Shown piece after piece: positions 1,168-52,142 of a stretch of DNA of 64,000 nucleotides. The number at the start of each line of letters is the position of its first letter. The stretch's first letter is position 1. Position numbers and translations under genes: made by a program. Below the pieces are notes generated by a model that saw nothing but the letters and a program-made list of their open reading frames with translations, was not told the origin of the DNA and made no database searches. The stretch comes from Candidatus Babelota bacterium (GTDB lineage: Bacteria > Babelota > Babeliae > Babelales > JABDEC01): NCBI GenBank assembly GCA_013286795.1, contig JABDFA010000001.1, positions 38,195-102,194 on the forward strand. The letters are read 5' to 3'.

Positions 1168-1827
1168 TTACAAGATAATACATTCATGCTTTCTTATAGG
1201 ACGACTCAAAATTTTCCTGATAGTTGGATTTTCTGTAAGATCAATTGGTCTTTTACCTTTTTGGTCTTGCAAAATTGGATTCGCACCAAATCTAAGTAAT
1301 ATTTTAATTATATCAGGATGAACATTTTTTTCTGCTGCCCGATGCAACAATGTGACACCATATTCATTAGAATAATTGATATCAATACCTTTTAATAATA
1401 ACAATGATATTATTTTTTTAAAATTTTCCTTTGTTTCATCATTTATAAAATCAAATTCTTGTTCTTTATCTTCTTTTTCTTCTCTTTCTCCAAATATAGA
1501 AGGATATTTTCCTAAATTTGACATAGTATAACCTAAAGCACAATCACCAAAGCTATCAACTATACGGACATTGGCTCCATTATCAATTAATAATTTAACT
1601 ATTTTATAATTTAAATTTTTACAAGCCATCATTAAAGCTGTGTGTCTATGATTATTTTCATCTATCATAGGAAAATCAACATTGTATCCTGATTCTATTT
1701 GTTTTTTAACTTCAGAAAAATCATTATGCTCCGCCGCTTTAAATAATTCGCTTCCATATGTGCTTTGATAACAAAAAATAAATAAAAATATATAAATATA
1801 TTTTTTCTTTAAAATCTTATTAAACAT
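1168..1827 (-). CDS. Secreted ankyrin-repeat protein ending in a CaaX box (CIIL)
   Basis: The N-terminal leader is MFNKILKKKYIYIFLFIFCYQSTYG. ANK repeats include 'TALMMACKNLNYKIVKLLIDNGANV' and 'TLLHRAAEKNVHPDIIKILLRFGANP'. The C-terminus is 'RKHECIIL*'. Confidence 0.85.
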   Translation of the reverse strand: MFNKILKKKYIYIFLFIFCYQSTYGSELFKAAEHNDFSEVKKQIESGYNVDFPMIDENNHRHTALMMACKNLNYKIVKLLIDNGANVRIVDSFGDCALGYTMSNLGKYPSIFGEREEKEDKEQEFDFINDETKENFKKIISLLLLKGIDINYSNEYGVTLLHRAAEKNVHPDIIKILLRFGANPILQDQKGKRPIDLTENPTIRKILSRPIRKHECIIL

Positions 1828-2047
1828 TTATCTCCTTTTATTAAACAAATTTTTATATTTTAAACATTGCAAAGTTTAAATGTTTTTAAAAATAACTTCT
1901 ATAATTTTTAAATTTTTTTTTCAAAAATATCAAGGCTCTCAGAATATATATATTTACATTCATTACATGTCATAGTTATGAAAGTGGTTTTATAAGTACA
2001 AAAGCGATATAATTGGGGTACTGGAAATATAAATTTACAAAGATATT

Positions 2048-3180: not shown

Positions 3181-3801
3181 ATGGTAATATCTAAAAGAGC
3201 CTACAACTTAGAAAAAAGGCAAGCTAAGGCTCAAAAAACAAAGGACCGTATTCTAGTTTCAGCAAAAGAGCTTTTTGAATCTAAAGGATTTGAAAAAGTA
3301 ACTATTGAAGAAATTGCTATCAGAGCAGAAGTATCTGGACCTACAGTTTATTCTATTTTTCAATCAAAAAGTGGAGTTTTAAAGGATTTAATTGATGTAG
3401 CTCTTCCCCAAAAACATTATGAATCAATTATTCAAAAACTGGAAAAGGAAAAATCTGTATCTAAGCGTCTTGAATTAACTGCCAAGCTTTCTCGCCAAAT
3501 TTATGATGCAGAGAAAGAGCAATTAGGGTTGTTACCGGATGTATCAATTTTAAATTCAGAGCTTAAAAATCTAGAATTTGAGCGGGAACAAAGACGTTAC
3601 AAACGACAAGAAGAATCAATCAAAAGATTTAAAGAAAAAAACTTATTAGGAGAACTCAATACATCAAAAGCAAGAGATATTTTATGGGCTTTCACTGGTA
3701 GAGATTTTTACCGAATGTTAGTAATTGAGCGAGGTTGGTCTTCAGATGAATATGAAAAATGGTTGGCTAATATGTTGGTACAGATTTTACTTAAACCATA
3801 A
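3181..3801 (+). CDS. TetR/AcrR-family transcriptional regulator
   Basis: The N-terminal HTH 'ILVSAKELFESKGFEKVTIEEIAIRAEVSGPTVYSIFQSKSGVL' is a classic TetR_N signature. Confidence 0.85.
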   Translation: MVISKRAYNLEKRQAKAQKTKDRILVSAKELFESKGFEKVTIEEIAIRAEVSGPTVYSIFQSKSGVLKDLIDVALPQKHYESIIQKLEKEKSVSKRLELTAKLSRQIYDAEKEQLGLLPDVSILNSELKNLEFEREQRRYKRQEESIKRFKEKNLLGELNTSKARDILWAFTGRDFYRMLVIERGWSSDEYEKWLANMLVQILLKP

Positions 3802-3818
3802 AATCGAATTAAATAAAA

Positions 3819-4505
3819 ATGATAATACAAGAACAATCACAAGAAATCTGTTTTCAAATAGATTATAAAGTTCTGGAAAAAAAAGGGATCGTGATAGTAG
3901 GATTGAGTCCAGAAAACAGTTATTTCAAAAAAGAAACTATTCATGAACTTCTTAGTTTTCTGACAAATTTATTTTCTATGCTAAGAATAATGATTCCCGA
4001 TAAGCCTATACTACATACTTATAAAGCTCTTGGATATTCTATTCAAAAAGCCGAAAGAAAAGCTCGATTAAATGGAAATACCTTAAAAAATCATTGTAAT
4101 AATAGCATCAATGAAATATTAAAAATTCAATCTAATAAAGATATAAAAATTATTAATTGGGAACTTGAAATCGAATCTGAAGAAAATTATTTGCACGAAC
4201 TAAAAGCTTTATTTGCATTATATCAAAGCAAAACTTTATTTTATGAAGATGTGCGATCGACTAAATGGCAAGTTATTAAAAAAAATATGAAGGACCATTC
4301 AGACATAGAAAAATCATTAGATGAAGCTGTTATTTACCTGCTGAAAGAATTAGCATTTATTTTAGCTAGTCCACTTATGTTTAAAGTAGAAAATATAGCA
4401 TTTGTATATCATACAAATTGGCCTCCTTTTGAAAATCTTATTGCTGGGAAATATGATGGCAAAATAAGAAAGAATATAGGATTTCTTATTTGTGTAAAAA
4501 AATAA
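3819..4505 (+). CDS. tRNA-dependent cyclodipeptide synthase (CDPS, NYH-type)
   Basis: 228 aa. 'VIVGLSPENSYFK' matches the catalytic-Ser pocket of AlbC/YvmC (GISxxNSxF). 'ALGYSIQKAERKAR', 'YLLKELAFILASP' (Y..E) and 'FVYHTNWP' (YH) are collinear with the remembered AlbC/YvmC sequences. The gene starts 17 nt after the TetR stop. Confidence 0.8.
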   Translation: MIIQEQSQEICFQIDYKVLEKKGIVIVGLSPENSYFKKETIHELLSFLTNLFSMLRIMIPDKPILHTYKALGYSIQKAERKARLNGNTLKNHCNNSINEILKIQSNKDIKIINWELEIESEENYLHELKALFALYQSKTLFYEDVRSTKWQVIKKNMKDHSDIEKSLDEAVIYLLKELAFILASPLMFKVENIAFVYHTNWPPFENLIAGKYDGKIRKNIGFLICVKK

Positions 4506-4625: not shown

Positions 4626-5228
4626 ATGAAATTAAGATTATTTTTATCAGTGGCAATAGCTTTATTAATTGTTCCCACAATCAGCTTATCTATGATTAAA
4701 AAGCATAGAAGCCCACAAGAAAAATTATTTAAAGGTACAAGGTATAATGATTTAAATTTGGTACAAGAAGCTCTAGCAGAAGGAGCAGATGTTAATGCAA
4801 AAAATGACATTGGAAAAACTCCTTTAAATATCATAATCGATCATAACGGTTTTCGGAGTTCCAAAAATTCAGATATCGTATTATTAAAAATTATCGAATT
4901 ATTATTAAAGTCAGGCGCACATGTTAATGAAAAAAATAACTATGGCAACACTCCTCTTTATAGTCTGATTCGATTAAATTATGATCCTAATATTATTGAA
5001 ATGTTATTAAATGCAGGTGCTGATATTAATATTGGAAGCTCATATGAAGAAACTATTGGTGAGACTGCTTTAGATGTAGCAAAAGCAAAAAACAATGAAA
5101 AAATAATTAGGCTTCTTACAAAATGGTTAAAAGAATTAAGAAAAAAAGCTAAAGAAGAAACAGCTGCCTATTTAATACCTGATATTAGTGATATAGTTTG
5201 TGATTATGTTGTTGGCTCAAAAAAGTAA
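4626..5228 (+). CDS. Secreted ankyrin-repeat protein with the conserved C-terminal tail motif
   Basis: RBS AGGAGG lies upstream. The leader is MKLRLFLSVAIALLIVPTISLS. ANK repeats include 'TPLNIIIDHNG..', 'TPLYSLIRLNYDPNIIEMLLNAGADIN'. The tail is 'YLIPDISDIVCDYVVGSKK*'. Confidence 0.85.
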   Translation: MKLRLFLSVAIALLIVPTISLSMIKKHRSPQEKLFKGTRYNDLNLVQEALAEGADVNAKNDIGKTPLNIIIDHNGFRSSKNSDIVLLKIIELLLKSGAHVNEKNNYGNTPLYSLIRLNYDPNIIEMLLNAGADINIGSSYEETIGETALDVAKAKNNEKIIRLLTKWLKELRKKAKEETAAYLIPDISDIVCDYVVGSKK

Positions 5229-11168: not shown

Positions 11169-12401
11169 TTAATTTTTATCATATTCATCAAGAGCATCAT
11201 TTAGAATCCGATTTAATTCTGTCGATGGATTAATTTTAACGATACCTGGTTCTGTAGGTGGATTAGAATATGCTTGATTGCTCCAGATTTTTATTTTTCC
11301 ATCATATGATCCTGATGCAAACGTATTTTCTGATAATGCACACAAGCTGGTAAGACCACTTTCATGGGCCTGAAAAGTTTTTATACATTTGCCGCTTTCT
11401 GTATCCCATATTTTTATGGTTTTGTCATAATATCCAGATATAGATACAACTATCTTAGTAGATAATACACATAAATGTTTTGCATCTGTTTCTAATGTTT
11501 TTTCACATTCACCTGTTTCTAAATTCCATATTTTAATCTTGCAATCATCATATCCTGAAACAAGTTTATTTTTTGATAGTATACATAATGTATGGATAGA
11601 ACTATTGTGATCCTTAAGTGTTTTTACGCATTCATTATTATTTAAGTTCCATATTTTTATTGTTCCATCATGTGATGCTGATGCTAATGAATTTTCGGAT
11701 ATGGCACAAAAAGCTGTAATGGAAGATTCATGCTCCGATAAAGTTTGCTCACATTTACCTGTTTTTAGATTAAATATTTTAATTGAATCTTGCTTGTATA
11801 AGTAATTATAAGGCTTATTTTCATGGAAGCTAAAAACAAGTTTATCAGAATTTAATATACATAATATACATTTACCAATATCATTAAATTCAAAAGTTCT
11901 TTCATGTCTACAATATAGCCAATCCTTTTTTACTAAGTCTAAAAAATCTAAATTCCATATATTTATTGTTTTTTTATGAAATGAATGTCCTGATATTAGA
12001 ATATTTTTTGAAGGCGAACATAAGGTATCAATTCGATTTCCCAAAAATTTGGTACTTATACAATTGTAAGTTCCTAAATCCCATATTTTTATGTATCCAT
12101 TATTTGATACTGCTGCTATTTTATTATCATCTAATTTACATAAGGAATCAACGACTTCAAAGCCACCAAGTTCTCTAGCTAATAATTCTTTGCATTCCCA
12201 TTTATCTTCTATTGGATCATATTCTTGAACTAATCTAGCTAAATCATCAATTAAATGCTGGGAAAGACATTCTTGGCGATATCCGGTGATTTTTTGAACT
12301 AATGCAGAAGATAAGTCTTCTTTTTCTTTTGATTCAGACATTGAGTTTATATTAAAAGTCACTACTGAAAGTAATAAAACTATTTTTAGTATATTATTCA
12401 T
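11169..12401 (-). CDS. Secreted WD40-repeat protein with an N-terminal F-box-like motif
   Basis: About seven repeats end in 'IKIWDL/IKIWNL/INIWNL/IKIFNL/IKIWDT'. The leader is MNNILKIVLLLSVVTFNINS. 'HLIDDLARLVQEYDP' lies upstream of the propeller. Confidence 0.85.
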   Translation of the reverse strand: MNNILKIVLLLSVVTFNINSMSESKEKEDLSSALVQKITGYRQECLSQHLIDDLARLVQEYDPIEDKWECKELLARELGGFEVVDSLCKLDDNKIAAVSNNGYIKIWDLGTYNCISTKFLGNRIDTLCSPSKNILISGHSFHKKTINIWNLDFLDLVKKDWLYCRHERTFEFNDIGKCILCILNSDKLVFSFHENKPYNYLYKQDSIKIFNLKTGKCEQTLSEHESSITAFCAISENSLASASHDGTIKIWNLNNNECVKTLKDHNSSIHTLCILSKNKLVSGYDDCKIKIWNLETGECEKTLETDAKHLCVLSTKIVVSISGYYDKTIKIWDTESGKCIKTFQAHESGLTSLCALSENTFASGSYDGKIKIWSNQAYSNPPTEPGIVKINPSTELNRILNDALDEYDKN

Positions 12402-12579: not shown

Positions 12580-13347
12580 ATGAGATATTTAAAATATTTA
12601 GTTTTTTCATTTATAGTAATTTCTTTTTCACAAACTATCAAACCTTTTGGGGCTGATTTGACTGAAGAAGAACAAATTGAGCTTGCAAAGCTAATGAGCT
12701 TGGAAGCTGAAAGCAAAAGAATTCAGGAAGAATCTAACAAAACAGAAGAAGACGCAGAGCTTAAAAAAGCTATTCAAATGAGTTTGGAATCTCAAGCTAA
12801 AGACAAAAAACATCTTTCTCAAGAAGAGCAAAAAAGGGTTAATGATATGCTTTGGGATGGGGTAAAGGCGAAAAATGCTGCATTGGTTAATAAAGCTTTA
12901 ACATCTGGAGCAAATTTCAATATCCTAATTCAATCTAATATCCCAATTCACTCTAAAATAACACCTTTAATATATTCTTCGAGTGTAGGCTATGAAGATA
13001 TTATAAAAACATTATTAGATGCTGGAGCAGATCCTAATATTAGAGATGATTATGGGAGAACATCTTTAATGTATGCTTCATTGTCTGGTTATGAAAGTGC
13101 AGTAAGGATGTTATTAGAAAACGGCGCTAATCCTAATATTATTGATGATGGTGGTGAAACTGCAGCAGATAAAGCTAAGAAAAACGGCTATAAAGCAATT
13201 GAACAAATATTAAGGGAAGCCCAAAGACAAGCAGTTAAAAAAGAAATTATTAAAAATACACCTTTGATTCCAGAATTTGCTGAAATAATTTCTGAATACG
13301 CTGAATGCCTCAAGCCTGAAAACTCAAAACGTAAGGAAATAAAATGA
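12580..13347 (+). CDS. Secreted protein with tandem UIMs, ankyrin repeats and the conserved C-terminal tail
   Basis: The two UIMs are 'TEEEQIELAKLMSLEAES' and 'TEEDAELKKAIQMSLESQ' (e-e-x-x-x-A-x-x-x-S-x-x-e pattern). ANK repeats include 'TPLIYSSSVGYEDIIKTLLDAGADPN', 'TSLMYASLSGYESAVRMLLENGANPN'. The tail is 'PLIPEFAEIISEYAEC'. Confidence 0.85.
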   Translation: MRYLKYLVFSFIVISFSQTIKPFGADLTEEEQIELAKLMSLEAESKRIQEESNKTEEDAELKKAIQMSLESQAKDKKHLSQEEQKRVNDMLWDGVKAKNAALVNKALTSGANFNILIQSNIPIHSKITPLIYSSSVGYEDIIKTLLDAGADPNIRDDYGRTSLMYASLSGYESAVRMLLENGANPNIIDDGGETAADKAKKNGYKAIEQILREAQRQAVKKEIIKNTPLIPEFAEIISEYAECLKPENSKRKEIK

Positions 13348-14195
13348 AAGTTGTTAAAATATTGTATTTAGGGGTATTTTTTAGTTGCATATTATCTAAT
13401 GCTGCAGAGTTAGAAGTAAAAGAAACAAATGAGCTTGATAGGCTTGAGAATTTTGTTCTATCATTTAATAAACAATTACATATTAATAAGCAGTTATTTA
13501 ATGCTATTTCAAAAGGTTCTTTAGATGATGTTAAAAAATCTTTGGAAAATGGTGCTAGCCTAACATCAATAAATTTATTAAAAGAATACAATACTCCTCT
13601 TTTTGCTGCTATTTATGCACCTATAACTGTCAATAAAATTCTGATAATTGAATTGCTGCTGAAAAAAGGTGCAAATCCAAATGACTCAGATGTAAAAGGT
13701 AAGACACCATTAAGTGCAGCATTGACTTTAAATGAAATTGTAAGAGAAGAGAGTAATCAAATTCCAGCTATAGTAAAACTTTTATTAGATTTTGGTGCTG
13801 ATGTAAATAAACCTTCTGGTGATGGATACACCCCTATTATGGAAGCTAGAAATAGAAGTACGCCTGATTTAATCAATTTATTGATCAAAAATGGAGCTGA
13901 CGTTAATGCTTATGAGGAAGAGGATGCTTCTACTGCTTTAATTCAAGCAGCAGAAAGAGCCGATAATGTAGCAGTAAGAGCTTTGTTATCTGCAGGTGCT
14001 GATATAAATCATAGGGATAATGAAGGAGAAACTGCGTATGAAGTTGCAGATAGACTTTGCAATGCCGAAACTGCTGAAATTATAAAAAGTTGGTCAGAGT
14101 TTATGCAAAAAGGGATAGAAAAAGAACTTTTTGAAATGGGCTATTCAGTTAATGATCTAAATAAAATTATTTCAAGCTATCTGTTTAATCTTTAA
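13344..14195 (+). CDS. Secreted ankyrin-repeat protein
   Basis: The start overlaps the upstream stop (ATGA). ANK repeats include 'TPLSAALTLN..', 'TPIMEARNRSTPDLINLLIKNGADVN', 'TALIQAAERADNVAVRALLSAGADIN'. The tail is 'VNDLNKIISSYLFNL*'. Confidence 0.85.
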   Translation: MKVVKILYLGVFFSCILSNAAELEVKETNELDRLENFVLSFNKQLHINKQLFNAISKGSLDDVKKSLENGASLTSINLLKEYNTPLFAAIYAPITVNKILIIELLLKKGANPNDSDVKGKTPLSAALTLNEIVREESNQIPAIVKLLLDFGADVNKPSGDGYTPIMEARNRSTPDLINLLIKNGADVNAYEEEDASTALIQAAERADNVAVRALLSAGADINHRDNEGETAYEVADRLCNAETAEIIKSWSEFMQKGIEKELFEMGYSVNDLNKIISSYLFNL

Positions 14196-15008: not shown

Positions 15009-15956
15009 ATGGAGATCAAAATAATAAAGGTTTTTACAATCTTTCTAGTTTTAGCTTTTTTCAATAATATAAGCAGTATGGGGCCTGGTATTTCTCCTAA
15101 TCAGCTTTTGATTGATAGTGCTGCGACTGGTGATCTTGAAGGCGTTAAAAATGCTTTGGAGCAAGGTGCAGATGTATATTATCAAGGTGGCAAATATAGA
15201 GAGAGTCGTTTCGATGACTTACCGGCAATTTTTTATGCTTGTGAAAGAGGACATTTAAATATTGTTGAATTTTTGGTTAAATCAGGCTTTGATCCTAACT
15301 TTGTTGAAGCTAGAAACTATACCCTTCTGGACTTTGCAATATGGAACAAACATACTAAAATCTTTGAATATTTAATTAAGAAAAACTTAACTAATCGTAC
15401 AAGAATAGTTAGCTATTTTAGTTTTTATGGATCTTATATTCCTCAGCTTGCAGTTTGGCATGGAGTAACTCCTTCTCGTTTAAGATACGAAAAAAACATT
15501 AGAGTAGTTATTCAAGATTTTGATCTAAAATTGAAAAAATGGTTATCTGAAAGAGATAGACAAATCAAAGAACTTTCAACTGTTGGGCGTGATAGTGAAG
15601 AAGGGTTACGCATAATAGAATCTTTGGAAAGTATCAAAAGTACTATATTAAGTATTTTAGATACCCAAGCTATTTTAAAAAAATTTGCATTAAGGCTTGC
15701 AAATCTTGAAAATAAAAGCTTTAAGGACATTGTTAAAAAAGCTAATCAGGTTAAAAAGAATAAGCTTAAAAACAAAATTAATGGATTAGGTATTTTACCT
15801 CATGTTATTGAAGATATGGTTGTTCAATATTCTTTATATCCAGAAAATTTTGAAGATTTCTTTAAGTTGTCAGATTATGAGCTTGATGATCTAGTCAAAA
15901 CCTACTCAGAGGAATTTGAAAAAAAAGAACGTGCTGAATCTTGTTTAATTATGTAA
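15009..15956 (+). CDS. Secreted ankyrin-repeat protein ending in a CaaX box (CLIM)
   Basis: ANK repeats include 'LLIDSAATGDLEGVKNALEQGADV' and 'PAIFYACERGHLNIVEFLVKSGFDPN'. An internal tail-like motif 'ILPHVIEDMVVQYS' is present. The C-terminus is 'RAESCLIM*'. Confidence 0.8.
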   Translation: MEIKIIKVFTIFLVLAFFNNISSMGPGISPNQLLIDSAATGDLEGVKNALEQGADVYYQGGKYRESRFDDLPAIFYACERGHLNIVEFLVKSGFDPNFVEARNYTLLDFAIWNKHTKIFEYLIKKNLTNRTRIVSYFSFYGSYIPQLAVWHGVTPSRLRYEKNIRVVIQDFDLKLKKWLSERDRQIKELSTVGRDSEEGLRIIESLESIKSTILSILDTQAILKKFALRLANLENKSFKDIVKKANQVKKNKLKNKINGLGILPHVIEDMVVQYSLYPENFEDFFKLSDYELDDLVKTYSEEFEKKERAESCLIM

Positions 15957-16191: not shown

Positions 16192-17502
16192 ATGTCTTAT
16201 AAACCTGAAGTAATTGAAAATATTAAAAAATCTGCAGTTATTTTAGATGAAAAAGCTTATGATATTTTATTAGAAAAAATTGGGGATGCACAAGTAGTAC
16301 TTTTAGGCGAAGCGACCCATGGGACACATGAATTTTATGAAATTCGAGCTGAGATTACAAAAAAATTAATTTTACAAAAAGATTTTAATGCTATAGCAAT
16401 AGAGGGTGATTGGCCAGATGCTTATAATATAAATAATTATATACATCAAAAGAAATACAAAAATGCTCAGGAAGCTTTAGCTTCATTTGATAGATTTCCA
16501 ACATGGATGTGGAGAAATGTTTCTATATTAAAATTAGTTGAGTGGCTAAAAAATCATAATACAAAATCTAATGACCAAGTTGGCTTTTATGGACTTGATT
16601 TATATAGTTTATATAGATCAATAGATGCCGTAATTTTACATCTGGAAAAAATTGATCCAAAACTAGCACAAGAAGCTAGATATAAATATGCATGTCTAGA
16701 GCAATATCGTTATGATCCACAGGTATATGGATATTCAGTTTTTACAAAACTATCTGAATCATGTGAAAATGAGGTAATTGAAGTATTAAAGAAGCTTGAA
16801 GAACTTGAATGGAGATTTATAAAAGAGAAAAGGGAACAAGTAGATGAAGCTTTTTATATAACTCAAAATGGTAGAGTTGTTAAAAATTCTGAAAGCTATT
16901 ATCGTTATCTTTTTGTAAGTGAAATAAAAAATTGGAATCTCAGAGATTCCCATATGATGGAAACATTAGAAGAACTTATTAATTACTATAAAAAAAATGG
17001 TATTTCAAAGCCAAAAATTATAGTTTGGGCCCACAATTCACATATTGGAAATTCTAAGTTTACGCAAATGAGTAGTACAGGTGAATATAATATTGGCGAG
17101 CTTGTAAAAAATAAATTTGGCAACAATTCTTATAGCTTAGGATTTACAACTTATAATGGAACTGTTTCTGCTGCATCAGATTGGCATAGACCAGTAGAAC
17201 GTAAAATAATTAGAAATGCTTTATCAAATAGTTATGAGGAACTTTTTCATCAAGTTGAAATTCCACAATTTTTGTTAACACTTGAGGATAAGAATTTAGT
17301 TCCAAATGAATTGCTTGAAAGAGCCATTGGGGTTGTGTATGCTCCTCAAACTGAAAGATTAAGCCATTACTTTTATGCATCTTTGGCAAATCAATTTGAT
17401 GCAATAATCCATTGTGATAAAACTACTGCATTAGAGCCATTGGAAAAAAGTTCTGCTTGGATAGAAGGCGAGACTCCTGAAACTTACCCTTCAGGATTAT
17501 GA
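16192..17502 (+). CDS. Erythromycin-esterase-family (Ere/ChaN-like) protein
   Basis: 'VVLLGEATHGTHEFYEIRAEITKKLI..FNAIAIEGDWPDA' and 'IVWAHNSHIG' are characteristic of the family. Confidence 0.8.
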   Translation: MSYKPEVIENIKKSAVILDEKAYDILLEKIGDAQVVLLGEATHGTHEFYEIRAEITKKLILQKDFNAIAIEGDWPDAYNINNYIHQKKYKNAQEALASFDRFPTWMWRNVSILKLVEWLKNHNTKSNDQVGFYGLDLYSLYRSIDAVILHLEKIDPKLAQEARYKYACLEQYRYDPQVYGYSVFTKLSESCENEVIEVLKKLEELEWRFIKEKREQVDEAFYITQNGRVVKNSESYYRYLFVSEIKNWNLRDSHMMETLEELINYYKKNGISKPKIIVWAHNSHIGNSKFTQMSSTGEYNIGELVKNKFGNNSYSLGFTTYNGTVSAASDWHRPVERKIIRNALSNSYEELFHQVEIPQFLLTLEDKNLVPNELLERAIGVVYAPQTERLSHYFYASLANQFDAIIHCDKTTALEPLEKSSAWIEGETPETYPSGL

Positions 17503-41223: not shown

Positions 41224-42189
41224 CTATCTTTCTATAAATTGTGGAACATATTCCATATGGGGAGAGTTGTTGTTGATCTTATAAAATTGGCTAATGTCAA
41301 TTTTTAAACCAGATTTAAACTTTGTTAAAAGTTCTTGGTTAGAATATAATCCCATATTGCGGTTAGTAGATTGAGAATAACATAGGTTAAGTGGAATATT
41401 TAAAATCTTAGATTCTGCAAAAAATAAACCCTTTTTATTGTAATCAGATAAGTGATGCCAATAATATTCAAAAGTAGTTGGATTAACCATATTTATTGTT
41501 AATAAATCATTTTTAATATCTTCTTTTTTGTATATTGTCATATCGACAGTATTGGGGTATCTCCAATCTCCACAACTATTATTAAAAGTATACATGCAAA
41601 TATTATTATCAACCAAATTATATTCTGGAAGAGGAGTTGGGTTAATAAACATCATGTATGATTCTTTAATATTAAGTCCAAGTCGCAAATAAAATCCATA
41701 AGCATTAGTTAGTTTTAAAGCTTGCGTGCACTGTAAAATATCTATTTCATCTTTTACTATAATATCATCAACAGCATAGATTATATATTCTTCAGGTGAA
41801 TTAAAAGTGTATTCAAGAGTTAATATTTTAAAATCTGAATAAGGATCATTCCCCTGTTGATGAAATTTATAATGATTAAATCTTTTTTCGACTTCTTTAT
41901 ACGCATCCAAATAATCATGATCTGCTCTAAAAATTATGTGTGTTTCACCTAAATTTTTTACATACTTTTCTATAGATTCAAGAAGCGCATATAATTGTAA
42001 AGGTCTATTGTATGAAAATATAACTAGATCTGCTTTGTTTCCTGCAAATAAGTTTATAAAAATAGTTGAGAATAATGCTACTAAACATAATAATTTTTTT
42101 TTGGATTCGTATATAAGTCCGTTCGCCCTGAGCGATGTCTGAGCGACGAAGGAGTCGAAGACAGAGTCGAATGGGTTAACTATATTCAT
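41224..42189 (-). CDS. GT-A-like glycosyltransferase (paralog of 23595-24458) whose 5' end and start codon lie inside a GC-rich repeat
   Basis: 'ADLVIFSYNRPLQLYALLESI' and 'IYAVDDIIV' are present. The homology-supported body starts at '..KKKLLCLVALFSTIFINLFA', which has no canonical start of its own. In-frame ATGs occur only in or beyond the repeat (42189, 42375, 42384), so the end coordinate is uncertain. Confidence 0.6.
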   Translation of the reverse strand: MNIVNPFDSVFDSFVAQTSLRANGLIYESKKKLLCLVALFSTIFINLFAGNKADLVIFSYNRPLQLYALLESIEKYVKNLGETHIIFRADHDYLDAYKEVEKRFNHYKFHQQGNDPYSDFKILTLEYTFNSPEEYIIYAVDDIIVKDEIDILQCTQALKLTNAYGFYLRLGLNIKESYMMFINPTPLPEYNLVDNNICMYTFNNSCGDWRYPNTVDMTIYKKEDIKNDLLTINMVNPTTFEYYWHHLSDYNKKGLFFAESKILNIPLNLCYSQSTNRNMGLYSNQELLTKFKSGLKIDISQFYKINNNSPHMEYVPQFIER

Positions 42190-42323
42190 AAATATATTTA
42201 TGAATTCCCAGATATTATTTTTAATGAAACATTTAAAGCATAAATTACTTAAATTTTTTACCCATTCGACTCCCTCATTCGACTCGCGTAAACGCTCGCT
42301 CAGAGATCGCTCAGGGCGAACGG
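42119..42323. repeat. MITE-like GC-rich palindromic element (205 bp)
   Basis: The terminal inverted repeats are CCGTTCGCCCTGAGCGAT (42119-42136) and ATCGCTCAGGGCGAACGG (42306-42323). Imperfectly complementary GC-rich arms of about 60 nt flank an AT-rich centre. It is collinear with the 51149-51311 copy. Confidence 0.8.
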
Positions 42324-42433
42324 GATAAAGACAAGTTAATTTAATTTTTATATTAAAAATATGAGTATAATGCATAGTTATCACGAACGGATTTTAAATT
42401 TATCTTCCAACCAAATTAATTCCCTAACAGCTT

Positions 42434-43802: not shown

Positions 43803-45056
43803 TTAAATTAAATATTGGGCAACTATATTTGATAGATCTTTTAAAAGGGAAGTTGAATCAGTAATTTTATCTGTAAATTTTTCTCTTGAAATTTTCTTCA
43901 TTGTCTCTGCATTTTCTAGCAACTTGATCATCTTCTCAAACTCTTTTCCGTTATATTTTCTACTACGGGGGTTGATGGCAAATAATGCAGTTTTATATTT
44001 GTCATCAACTATTTTTTTCTCGCTTATAAATCCATTAGATATATATTGAATTATTTCTAAGACAGTATGTCCATCCACATCCTTAAAACCCAAATCTGCT
44101 CCGTGCCATATTAATAATGAAACTATGTCAATTCTATTATGTAAAGCAGCAAGCATTAAAGGGCTTATTTTAGTAGAGTAATCTGTTCTTTGACAAACAC
44201 CTGGATAATTTATATCAGTACCTTTATCTATTAAGAAATCTAATAATTCGCACGTTTCATCTTTATAATTTGAATCATAAAAATCGATTCTGTGTTGATC
44301 AAATAAAATAGCATTAAAAAAAATAGACCTTTCATCGATTATATCATGTATTATTGACTGATCATGATCTATTATGAGTTTTATAATCTTTGGATCCGTT
44401 TCCCGGTCCAATCCTAGAGTTAGAGAATTATCAAATTGATCGATATATTTTGTGTTGGCTCCTTTTTTTAAAGCAATTTCTACGAGTTCCAAATCATTAT
44501 CTTTAATAGTTTCTAGCAAATAATTATTTAAATTTAACTGATTATGTAAAATAGGTAGAATTTTTTCACGATTATATTTTTTGGCAAATTCTATAGCATC
44601 CATAATTTCTTTTTTATGTTTGCATTTTTTTACAAGTAATTGAGCTAATTTTAGATAATTATTTTGTATAGCAATCATTAGGGGAGTTAGATTCTCTTCT
44701 TGAAAAGTTACATCAGAATCTTTTTTAGAGAAACAAAAAGCTAATTGGGATTTGGTGATTTCTGTATTTGCCCCATTTTCTAGTAAGAATTTGCTCATTT
44801 TTATGTCATTGATTGTAGTAGCCCAAGTTAGACAAGTATGCTCATCTTCATCTTTAGAATTGATGTCAGCTCCATTTATTAGTGCTTCCTGCATAGTTTT
44901 TATATCCCCTTCTTTTGCAGCTAAATGTAATTTTTGATTAGGGCATAACACTACTTTATATGCAGTATTAAGCTTTTGTTTTTTTGCTGGACCTTGTTCC
45001 ATCGAATTAACTTGCACAGAAGATACTGAAATAAAAATTAATAATACTTTTTTCAT
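43803..45056 (-). CDS. Secreted ankyrin-repeat protein with the conserved tail
   Basis: There are multiple ANK repeats ('LHLAAKEGDIKTMQEALINGADIN', 'TCLTWATTINDIKMSKFLLENGAN', 'SPLMLAALHNRIDIVSLLIWHGADL'). The tail is 'LLKDLSNIVAQYLI*'. Confidence 0.85.
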   Translation of the reverse strand: MKKVLLIFISVSSVQVNSMEQGPAKKQKLNTAYKVVLCPNQKLHLAAKEGDIKTMQEALINGADINSKDEDEHTCLTWATTINDIKMSKFLLENGANTEITKSQLAFCFSKKDSDVTFQEENLTPLMIAIQNNYLKLAQLLVKKCKHKKEIMDAIEFAKKYNREKILPILHNQLNLNNYLLETIKDNDLELVEIALKKGANTKYIDQFDNSLTLGLDRETDPKIIKLIIDHDQSIIHDIIDERSIFFNAILFDQHRIDFYDSNYKDETCELLDFLIDKGTDINYPGVCQRTDYSTKISPLMLAALHNRIDIVSLLIWHGADLGFKDVDGHTVLEIIQYISNGFISEKKIVDDKYKTALFAINPRSRKYNGKEFEKMIKLLENAETMKKISREKFTDKITDSTSLLKDLSNIVAQYLI

Positions 45057-47551: not shown

Positions 47552-48229
47552 ATGAGAATTAAATTATTTTTATTAATCTATCTAGGATCTATAGGCTCAA
47601 TCTATGGTATGAGCAAAATTGCTAATGAAATGCTTTTGGAGGGGATTGTTATGGGGAATATAGAACTTGTAAAAGAGGCTATAGAAAATGGAGCAGATGT
47701 AAATACCAAAAAAGGCCAAGATACGGCTTTAATGATGGCTGCTCGTAATGATAATGAAGACGTAGCAAGGTTATTATTAGATGCTAAAGCTGACTGTAAT
47801 ATGACCGATGATTACAGTTCAACTCCCTTAATGATTGCAGTGCGTCGTGGCAAAGAAAATTTAGTGAAGCTATTTTTACGTTATGGTGCTGATCCTGATA
47901 TTAAAAGCAGGTATGGCGATGTGGCTTTGTTATTAGCTGCATATGGCTATGGAATTATCGTGAAAATGGAGGATATACTAAAATTATTATTAGATGCAGG
48001 TGCTTCTCTGGATATAATGGACAAGCAAGGTCTAAATGTTTTAGATACAGCAAATAAAAAAAAAGACAAATCTCTTATAGAATTATTAGAAGCTGAATAC
48101 AAAAAAAGAGAAGAAAAAAGACAACAGGTGAATAAAGAGATTGTTGAATCAGGTTATCTATTGCCGGATTTAGCAAGCATAGTTTCAGAATATGCTGTTT
48201 GCGCAAAACAAAAGGGAGGAGGCAAATAA
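47552..48229 (+). CDS. Secreted ankyrin-repeat protein with the conserved tail
   Basis: ATG 47552 gives the leader MRIKLFLLIYLGSIGSIYG. There are 4-5 ANK repeats. The tail is 'YLLPDLASIVSEYAVCAKQKGGGK*'. It is a close paralog of 63278-63919 and of the N-terminus of 54909-56264. Confidence 0.85.
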   Translation: MRIKLFLLIYLGSIGSIYGMSKIANEMLLEGIVMGNIELVKEAIENGADVNTKKGQDTALMMAARNDNEDVARLLLDAKADCNMTDDYSSTPLMIAVRRGKENLVKLFLRYGADPDIKSRYGDVALLLAAYGYGIIVKMEDILKLLLDAGASLDIMDKQGLNVLDTANKKKDKSLIELLEAEYKKREEKRQQVNKEIVESGYLLPDLASIVSEYAVCAKQKGGGK

Positions 48230-50963: not shown

Positions 50964-51148
50964 TTCTGATTTTAAATCAGTTATAAATATATAGGTGTCA
51001 GATAATTTTTTTGTCTACACCTATATTTATTTTACATAAATTCGATAATTAATTTATTTGCGAAGGCTTTATTCTGGTCAAGATATTAATAAAAAATTAT
51101 CAAATTCATCTTTATTATACACATCCTTATAGGGTAAAATCATCCAAT

Positions 51149-51311
51149 CCGTTCGCCCTGAGCGATGTTTGAGCGACGAAGGAGTCGAAAACAGAGTCGA
51201 ACGGGGTTTTTATATTGAAAAATAAATCAAAATTTTTAAAAATTTTTTACCCATTCGACTCCCTCTTCGTCTCGCGTAAACGCTCGCTCAGAGGTCGCTC
51301 AGGGCGAACGG
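51149..51311. repeat. MITE-like GC-rich palindromic element (163 bp)
   Basis: CCGTTCGCCCTGAGCGATGTTTGAGCGACGAAGGAGTCGAA... ...CGCGTAAACGCTCGCTCAGAGGTCGCTCAGGGCGAACGG. Both arms differ from the 42119 copy by only a few substitutions and single-base indels. It is intergenic, 37 nt 3' of the DOT1-like gene. Confidence 0.8.
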
Positions 51312-51347
51312 GAAAGATGTAAATCTATTTAAACAAAACAAGAAGAT

Positions 51348-52142
51348 TTATTTTTTGGCTTTTTTAGCAGCTTTTTTAGCTTTACCTTCAAGTTTATATA
51401 TATGAACTGGTGAACCTTCGGACCAAGTCATAGGTAGTTTATATTCTTTTATATGTTTTAGCCCAAAATCTTCATAGTTATCAGGCAAAGCTTTTAATGT
51501 AATTACAGTTAAACCTGGTTTTAATTTTGAAAATCTTTCTGTTAATTTTGCCATCAATTCTTCAGGATAACAGGTTGAACACATATAAATCACAGTGGCG
51601 TCGCTAATATTTTCTTTGGCTATATCGCCATTGTATAATTCAAATTTTCTGTCTTTAGTTATTAAATTCTTCTTTTCTAAATTTTTTCTTATAGTTTCTG
51701 CGTGGTGATTCCTGGTAGGAGAAAGTTCTATTCCTACAACTTTCTTAAAAGGATAATCCAGATACCCTTGTACAAGAACTTTTCCTGTTCCTGAGCCTAG
51801 ATCATACAAAACGTCTGTTTTTTTAATATTTAAATCATCTAAAACTTTTTTTAATGAATCAAACTTAATTTCTCCATAAACTGGACTGCCGCCAGTTTTT
51901 GTAACCATAGACCGTTCTGTATCACTGATTTGATGTTTAATGTTTTTATACATCTCATCTATTAAATCGGATGTGTTTATTTTCTTGCTTGCAGGTATAT
52001 CAGTTGTTACTTTTGCAGTTTTAGAAAGATTTGGCTTTATAGCGCAATTTTTAGTATTGTCTTTTTTTGCCTTACAATCAATAACATTATTCCATAATAT
52101 TAATGACATCGAAAATAATAAAAATTTTTGCATAACATTCAT
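51348..52142 (-). CDS. Secreted DOT1-like class I SAM methyltransferase with a Lys-rich C-terminal tail
   Basis: 'VYGEIKFDSLKKVLDDLNIKKTDVLYDLGSGTGKVLVQ', 'VGIELSP..HHAET' and 'YNGDI....ISDATVIYMCSTCYPEELMAKLTERFSKLKPG' are collinear with the remembered DOT1L core (YGETSFDL.., [13 protein letters not shown], GDF..., [13 protein letters not shown]...L.ERF..MK.G). The leader is MNVMQKFLLFSMSLILWNNV. The tail is 'GKAKKAAKKAKK*'. Confidence 0.65.
   Translation of the reverse strand: MNVMQKFLLFSMSLILWNNVIDCKAKKDNTKNCAIKPNLSKTAKVTTDIPASKKINTSDLIDEMYKNIKHQISDTERSMVTKTGGSPVYGEIKFDSLKKVLDDLNIKKTDVLYDLGSGTGKVLVQGYLDYPFKKVVGIELSPTRNHHAETIRKNLEKKNLITKDRKFELYNGDIAKENISDATVIYMCSTCYPEELMAKLTERFSKLKPGLTVITLKALPDNYEDFGLKHIKEYKLPMTWSEGSPVHIYKLEGKAKKAAKKAKK

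Follow-up and report, generated by a model that had tools for sequence, protein, structure and literature searches.

A signal-peptide ankyrin-repeat protein with a predicted host-geranylgeranylation tail in an AT-rich, apparently intracellular bacterium

Architecture of the gene and its protein

We examined a 64,000-nucleotide stretch of DNA (contig JABDFA010000001.1, positions 38,195 to 102,194), here called the window, and in particular a gene near its start that encodes an ankyrin-repeat (ANK) protein with a C-terminal CaaX box. The gene lies on the minus strand at 1168..1827 and was delineated from the list of open reading frames (ORFs), Pfam matches and an AlphaFold2 (AF2) model. A protein identical to its product of 219 residues, P0001, is present in public protein collections, where it is encoded on a contig of 177,881 bp. 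The first-pass annotation had assigned a CIIL motif to 1171-1182, at the end of this ORF, and the minus-strand translation agrees with it exactly. The protein ends in ...ILSRPIRKHECIIL, with codons for Cys at 1180-1182, Ile at 1177-1179, Ile at 1174-1176 and Leu at 1171-1173, followed by the stop codon TAA at 1168-1170. Judged by its sequence and by an ortholog that ends in CVIL, the box (1171..1182, minus strand; Cys216-Ile-Ile-Leu219) is a predicted site for geranylgeranyltransferase I (GGTase-I).

At the other end of the gene, a Shine-Dalgarno sequence AAGGAG (1832..1837, minus strand) stands 4 nt upstream of the ATG. This site and the fact that the ATG is the sole one ahead of the first repeat fix the start codon, so that MFNKILKKKYIYIFLFIFCYQSTYG belongs to P0001. 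By sequence and hydropathy, the N-terminal segment (residues 1-25, 1753..1827, minus strand) looks like a Sec signal peptide: in MFNKILKKKYIYIFLFIFCYQSTYG|SE, a Lys-rich n-region is followed by an 11-residue hydrophobic core and by small residues at -3/-1. Hydropathy over 10 residues peaks at 2.56, whereas the housekeeping proteins of the window stay below 1.5, and K/R account for 4 of the 10 residues at the very N-terminus. The segment does not match the lipobox pattern of signal peptidase II (SPase II), [LVI][ASTVI][GAS]C, since the residues in question are F-I-F-C19.

The ankyrin-repeat domain occupies residues 28-208 (1204..1746, minus strand) and is supported both by Pfam (Ank_2, 1.4e-17, plus Ank, Ank_4 and Ank_5) and by the secondary structure of the AF2 model, which has an ANK fold with a predicted local distance difference test (pLDDT) score of 83.8 and a predicted template modelling score (pTM) of 0.79. 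A disordered acidic loop, residues 108-124 (1456-1506, minus strand), interrupts the domain at pLDDT <50. Pfam repeats and a secretion-type N-terminus, the latter read from the sequence, thus bear out the annotated character of P0001 as a secreted ANK protein. A sequence search of the PDB with P0001 returned generic ANK proteins only.

In the model, the last helix (residues 201-208) ends at position -8 relative to the Cys, and residues 211-219 have a mean pLDDT of 69. The CIIL tail sits beyond this helix, outside the fold and at lower confidence. Residues 204-215 (RKILSRPIRKHE; 1183..1218, minus strand) form a basic linker ahead of the Cys and are, from sequence and AF2, a candidate polybasic second membrane signal. 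Positions -11..-1 read KILSRPIRKHE, with 4 K/R and 1 E, and the basic residues that had been noted ahead of the motif are therefore real. Directly downstream of the gene lies a GC-rich element (958-1140), one of several intergenic repeats described below, whose predicted hairpin is no stabler than those of shuffles (z = -0.84).

Fit of the tail to prenyltransferases

The terminal tetrapeptide has the features expected of a GGTase-I substrate. The Cys stands four residues from a free C-terminus (C216-I-I-L219, then TAA), the a1 and a2 positions are aliphatic and uncharged (I, I), and X is Leu, which together with Phe is the residue expected there. The annotation had placed CaaL in the GGTase-I class, and published work on the tetrapeptide itself is in agreement: CIIL accepts geranylgeranyl, as a heterologous protein tagged with it took up [3H]geranylgeranyl in yeast lysate, and the tag was enough for membrane attachment (PMC2192637).

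The tails described here also recur in eukaryotic GTPases, CIIL being the tail of ScRho2, CVIL of ScRho5, CIIM of ScRho3 and CVIM of HsK-Ras4B (PMC11304957), and these same tetrapeptides are found among the members of both ANK families of the window. The basic stretch before the Cys likewise resembles the polybasic tails of Rho and K-Ras. Unlike Rho and Ras, P0001 has no GTPase domain, has a shorter linker, is a bacterial product and carries a signal peptide.

The tail is kept in a diverged ortholog

In a search of 5.8 billion clustered proteins, P0001 had a single ortholog, P0002, with 39% identity across 88% of the query. Among the matches listed from a HMMER search of 1.84 billion representatives, which giant multi-ANK proteins dominated, no single-stretch ortholog other than these two proteins appeared. 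P0002 is encoded on a 7.4-kb contig of 29.5% GC and aligns with P0001 to the very C-terminus, where it ends in ...QRRSNCVIL. The last 4 residues of the two proteins are 75% identical and the preceding 20 residues 20%; the motif is thus kept in both members of what we call family 1. The signal peptide of P0002 holds a lipobox-like IMAC, which is borderline by the SPase II lipobox pattern.

Two further observations concern the locus of P0002 (L001, 3766-4883). An extra Cys lies six residues ahead of the CaaX Cys (QCQRRSNCVIL) and is a possible palmitoylation site. After the gene comes a tandem paralog, truncated to 116 residues and with 43% identity to P0001, in which both the C-terminal half and the CaaX box are missing. 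Other candidate relatives were set aside. The metagenomic loci L007 and L009 (27-38% identical) belong to a flagellated low-GC organism, and their products, which end in KFLKGF and ILKDTK, are not orthologs of P0001. Viral contigs gave weak ANK matches only, none with a CaaX end.

A second family with CaaX and NLS-like tails

A second secreted ANK protein of the window, P0010 (315 residues; 15009..15956, plus strand), is unrelated to P0001, as judged from its sequence and relatives. It ends in CLIM (15942-15953, plus strand), a predicted CaaX box of the farnesylation class. Its ANK repeats are followed by long helices and then by a conserved C-terminal domain that has no Pfam match.

In this family 2, six of the seven full-length members, P0010 included, end in C[LVI]IM. 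The tetrapeptide is CLIM in P0010, P0015 and the product of L017:1873-2838, CVIM in P0012 and P0018, and CIIM in P0014; P0013 is the member without a CaaX box. Overall identity within the family is 29-37%; it reaches 82% over the last 4 residues but only 17-21% over the 20 residues ahead of them. Indels make the length of the linker differ among members by as much as about 17 residues, and the codon for the Cys shows synonymous differences (TGT/TGC). Signal peptides can be recognised in the sequences of all members, in P0018 only when a GTG start is used. The X residue is constant within each family, Leu in family 1 and Met in the CaaX members of family 2, as would be expected if the specificity of the respective enzyme, GGTase-I or farnesyltransferase, were under selection.

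Locus L015 (contig Ga0207097_1023, 7702-10915) carries a tandem array of four family 2 paralogs that have the C-terminal domain in common and differ in their tails, which read SKKRKLENIES, GEKRKLENIES, SKRRKLDNNDHQNL and ...PKGSCLIM. Three of the four thus have NLS-like (nuclear localisation signal-like) tails, KKRKL, EKRKL and KRRKL, in place of the CaaX box. The classical monopartite NLS follows the pattern K-K/R-x-K/R. On the evidence of the sequences, this alternation within one family is hard to explain unless a eukaryotic cell reads the tails. In both L015 and L001, homologs of a WD40 protein of the window (11169-12401) adjoin the ANK genes.

Genome context and affiliation

The window has a GC content of 26-35%, about 28% on the whole, and Rfam and tRNA scans of it gave no rRNA, tRNA or Rfam match. 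Its housekeeping proteins include DnaK, YchF, MiaA, Maf, CarD, phosphoribosyl pyrophosphate synthetase and regulators of the TetR and MerR families. They stand beside a set of eukaryote-like proteins: 11 ANK proteins, a WD40 propeller, a protein combining RING and leucine-rich repeats (LRRs), and a DOT1-like methyltransferase. A crude hydropathy test assigns signal-like N-termini to 43 of the 67 ORFs (~64%) and none to DnaK, YchF, MiaA, Maf and CarD.

These features recall the Dependentiae. The genomes of Babela massiliensis and Chromulinavorax destructans are reduced and AT-rich and encode about 100 ANK proteins; the majority of these carry signal peptides and are presumed to be secreted into the host cytoplasm (PMC4378268, PMC6561590). 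More specifically, B. massiliensis has a GC content of 27.4% and 126 ANK proteins, 79 of them with signal peptides, together with WD40, LRR and RING proteins (PMC4378268); in Chromulinavorax, whose cell lies in the host cytoplasm, 78% of 98 ANK proteins have signal peptides (PMC6561590). In TM6 genomes the type II secretion system is conserved, with gspD in two copies (PMC4776705), and a secretin gene is present in the related locus L015. P0001 shows the combination typical of the phylum, as it pairs a signal peptide with ANK repeats and comes from a genome that is AT-rich, reduced and rich in effectors. The source bacterium is AT-rich and apparently intracellular, and these genome features make a Babela-like member of the Dependentiae its most likely identity. 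A literature search found no report linking Dependentiae or TM6 with CaaX motifs or prenylation, and the genome papers on this phylum cited here mention neither, the term 'prenyl' being absent from the comparative papers on Babela and TM6 (PMC4378268, PMC4776705).

Host prenylation and competing explanations

We consider it probable that P0001 is a Sec-exported effector of an obligately host-associated bacterium that is geranylgeranylated by the GGTase-I of its host and thereby anchored to a host membrane. The mechanism would run in six steps. The first and third are read from the sequence; the second and the fourth to sixth we infer, as we do the lipidation, the delivery route and the taxon. 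The N-terminal signal peptide would direct P0001 via Sec to the periplasm (step 1). From there it would leave the cell, plausibly by the phylum-conserved type II secretin pathway or in outer-membrane vesicles, and reach the host cytoplasm (step 2). The tail, ...RPIRKHE-CIIL, would be free and exposed past the last ankyrin helix (step 3), allowing host GGTase-I to place a C20 isoprenoid on Cys216, after which Rce1 and Icmt would presumably cleave off -IIL and methylate the Cys (step 4). The prenyl group and the basic residues R204/K205/R209/R212/K213 would then hold the ankyrin domain at the cytosolic face of the host membrane (step 5), where the repeats would engage a host partner (step 6). 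The second ANK family of the same genome would act likewise through its CaaM tails, of the farnesyltransferase class, with some paralogs carrying NLS-like tails instead, and the C-terminal tails would accordingly serve as exchangeable address labels for the eukaryotic cell.

The placement of P0001 in the host cytosol with a lipid anchor is supported by the retention of CaaL in a 39%-identical ortholog and by the second ANK family of the window, which keeps CaaM. Its location in the host cytosol is further supported by the NLS-like tails that replace CaaX in paralogs and by the effector-rich, Babela-like context.

Several points weigh against this reading. Family 1 comprises just two members. 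P0002, to judge by its lipobox-like IMAC, may be retained on the bacterium. A Sec-exported protein has to cross the oxidising periplasm, then the outer membrane and any vacuolar membrane. The linker is also short: the predictor PrePS needs about 11 flexible, mostly hydrophilic residues upstream of the Cys, and in known prenylated GTPases the last helix ends at -12 to -15 (PMC1175975), compared with -8 for the last modelled helix of P0001. Furthermore, position -1 is Glu, where GGTase-I substrates favour Ser or Lys.

The best-surviving alternative is that the conserved Cys-hydrophobic tail has a role on the bacterial side and is never prenylated. It could sort or retain the protein in the periplasm or outer membrane, form a disulfide, bind a metal, or be acted on by a bacterial lipidation system or a CPBP-type protease. 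Sec-type signal peptides make the bacterial envelope the first destination, P0002 has its lipobox-like IMAC, and bacteria are known to have C-terminal tags with an invariant Cys on which homologs of CaaX proteases act (MYXO-CTERM/myxosortase, PMC11980579). However, the tails described here differ from MYXO-CTERM in having only three residues past the Cys, with neither a transmembrane helix nor a basic cluster there, and the window ORFs that were scanned yielded neither a prenyltransferase nor a CPBP protease. The tails are, moreover, exact Rho and Ras tetrapeptides of eukaryotes, with X being L or M by family, and the swaps to NLS-like tails in paralogs make sense only inside a eukaryotic cell. 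We therefore regard a purely bacterial role as improbable, while giving it some weight.

A second alternative is that C-I-I-L arose at the C-terminus by chance and has no function, Ile and Leu codons being plentiful in this genome; at 28% GC, I, L, K, N and F are indeed abundant. The frequency of such ends was assessed in the 67 window ORFs (19,295 residues) with the pattern C[AVILMF][AVILMF]x. The pattern occurs 39 times internally, so that just 0.135 C-terminal cases are expected; three were observed, with Poisson probabilities of P(>=2)=0.008 and P(>=3)=0.0004. They are CIIL in P0001, CLIM in the product of 15009-15956 and CLVP in that of 58879-59115. The last, on the plus strand, is a 78-residue Cys-rich product with a signal peptide that ends in ...GACNAGYCLVP. 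To our knowledge, Pro at X is not prenylation-competent, and with X = Pro the CLVP end is probably a chance match. The existence of such an end speaks for chance, as does the probability of 0.12, given the first case, of at least one more CaaX-like end among the other 66 ORFs. On the other side, the motif is kept in a 39%-identical ortholog and in six of seven family 2 members, with neighbouring residues only about 20% identical. Strict CaaX ends were found in none of about 115 generic ANK proteins from the same search and in 0 of 119 ORFs in unrelated loci. Taken together, the sequences make a chance origin of the P0001 CIIL unlikely, and we give it little credence.

Least probable of all, and barely credible to us, is that the tail is an unused relic kept by descent from an ANK-CaaX gene acquired from a eukaryotic host: Dependentiae and other amoeba parasites do carry many eukaryote-like genes thought to be horizontally acquired (PMC4378268), but no close or full-length eukaryotic homolog was found, the best non-family matches being generic ANK proteins at most 31% identical, the genes have gained bacterial signal peptides and a Shine-Dalgarno site, and a neutral tail would not outlast divergence to 30-40% identity with the flanking linker scrambled.

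Comparison with known CaaX effectors

If P0001 is indeed prenylated by its host, it has known counterparts. Like P0001, AnkB of Legionella pneumophila is a bacterial ANK protein that ends in a CaaX box; once prenylated by the host, it is held at the cytosolic face of a host membrane (PMC2916131, PMC5506055). Its organism is a parasite of amoebae and other protists, a lifestyle to which that of the window organism may be likened. The annotation had cited AnkB as a precedent. The CaaX effectors of Legionella are indeed real (PMC2916131, PMC13081727), but the analogy is functional only: AnkB has a Skp1-binding F-box, whereas Pfam finds no F-box or PRANC domain in P0001 and none in family 2 at E<=5, and the two proteins share no detectable homology beyond generic ANK repeats. 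They also differ in that AnkB is farnesylated, whereas P0001, with X = Leu, falls in the GGTase-I class. AnkB is delivered through Dot/Icm, a type IV secretion system (T4SS); P0001 has a Sec-type N-terminal signal, and the window ORFs that were scanned turned up no T4SS genes. Finally, P0001 comes from a different lineage, probably a non-proteobacterial one.

The Pel/CMP effectors of Legionella (PelA-K, LegG1/PelE) are unrelated proteins with a common C-terminal CaaX box, the Cys of which is needed for localisation to membranes or the vacuole (PMC13081727). In a similar manner, the two unrelated families of the window occur in one genome and share the CaaX box only. The Pel proteins are, however, T4SS substrates and number 7-11 in about 3000 L. 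pneumophila genes, compared with 2 in the 67 ORFs of the window, both with Sec signals. In Salmonella, the effector SifA has a C-terminal CaaX-like motif that is geranylgeranylated by host GGTase-I. Unlike P0001, SifA is a substrate of the type III secretion system (T3SS), has no ANK repeats and is also S-acylated.

P0001 would thus join the class of CaaX effectors formed by Legionella AnkB and Pel and by Salmonella SifA, with Sec-type delivery. The principle of host prenylation is already known, and the delivery architecture of P0001 is what sets it apart. Most of the established cases of effectors prenylated by the host have so far come from Legionella (T4SS) and Salmonella (T3SS). If the proposal is correct, it adds uncultured, Babela-like protist parasites to the bacteria that use this mechanism and implies a Sec-dependent route into the host. 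It would also provide direct sequence evidence that signal-peptide ANK proteins reach the host cytosol, as has hitherto been assumed.

A broader generalisation is possible, and we put it forward tentatively. Babela-like bacteria may export ANK effectors by Sec and a type II-like route, not by injection, and use the C-terminal tails as interchangeable address labels for the eukaryotic cell, a function suggested by the CaaM tails together with the NLS-like tails of paralogs. CaaL would specify geranylgeranylation, CaaM farnesylation and K-K/R-R-K-L nuclear import, with the tails being swapped among tandem paralogs. Host prenylation would then be a lineage-wide targeting strategy in a phylum for which it has not been reported before. 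The exchange of CaaX for NLS-like tails suggests a simple predictor of the destination of each effector. An N-terminal lipobox combined with a C-terminal prenyl group, as P0002 might have, could tether the bacterial surface to host membranes.

Other features of the window

A short motif near the C-terminus, [LI]P[DE][LIF]xxI[IV]x[DEQ]Y (for example LLPELADIVSDY), is conserved in 7 of the 11 ANK proteins of the window, namely those encoded at 4626-5228, 12580-13347, 13344-14195, 15009-15956, 43803-45056, 47552-48229 and 63278-63919. This LPxLxxIVxxY motif looks like the beginning of an F-box or PRANC domain, which would liken the proteins to AnkB, but such an identification was not supported, as 10 family members gave no such Pfam match at E<=5. 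A Foldseek comparison of the P0010 model with the PDB returned designed ankyrin repeat proteins (DARPins) and ANK proteins only, and lent the idea no support either.

Three other eukaryote-like proteins of the window carry signal peptides. The DOT1-like histone methyltransferase (51348-52142, minus strand; PF08123, 8e-21) has a Lys-rich tail, KLEGKAKKAAKKAKK, and is a candidate secreted nucleomodulin. The protein with LRRs and a RING finger (54168-54902, plus strand) is a candidate secreted mimic of E3 ubiquitin ligases, and the third is the WD40 beta-propeller protein (11169-12401, minus strand). An erythromycin-esterase-family protein (16192-17502, plus strand; PF05139, 3e-118) has no signal peptide. 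At 3181-4505 (plus strand), a TetR-family regulator adjoins a cyclodipeptide synthase (PF16715, 1.5e-30), which is unexpected in a reduced, host-dependent genome.

A cluster of about 20 genes, spanning about 25 kb at 19096-43708 (see also 115-957), has signal-like N-termini on nearly all of its products. It comprises glycosyltransferases of the GT10 (fucosyltransferase-like), GT11, GT2 and GT47/exostosin-like types together with a methyltransferase, an epimerase and an aminotransferase, and it includes the paralog groups 19096/20021/37947, 20958/24462 and 23595/41224. It is unusual for glycosyltransferases and sugar-nucleotide enzymes to carry signal peptides.

GC-rich intergenic repeats (~55-60%) stand out in this genome of 28% GC at 958-1140, 42118-42344 and 51148-51332. 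Identity between the 42-kb and 51-kb copies is 85-88%, and both have inverted arms. Two ORF calls, 41224-42375 and 54909-56264, seem to begin within such GC-rich elements.
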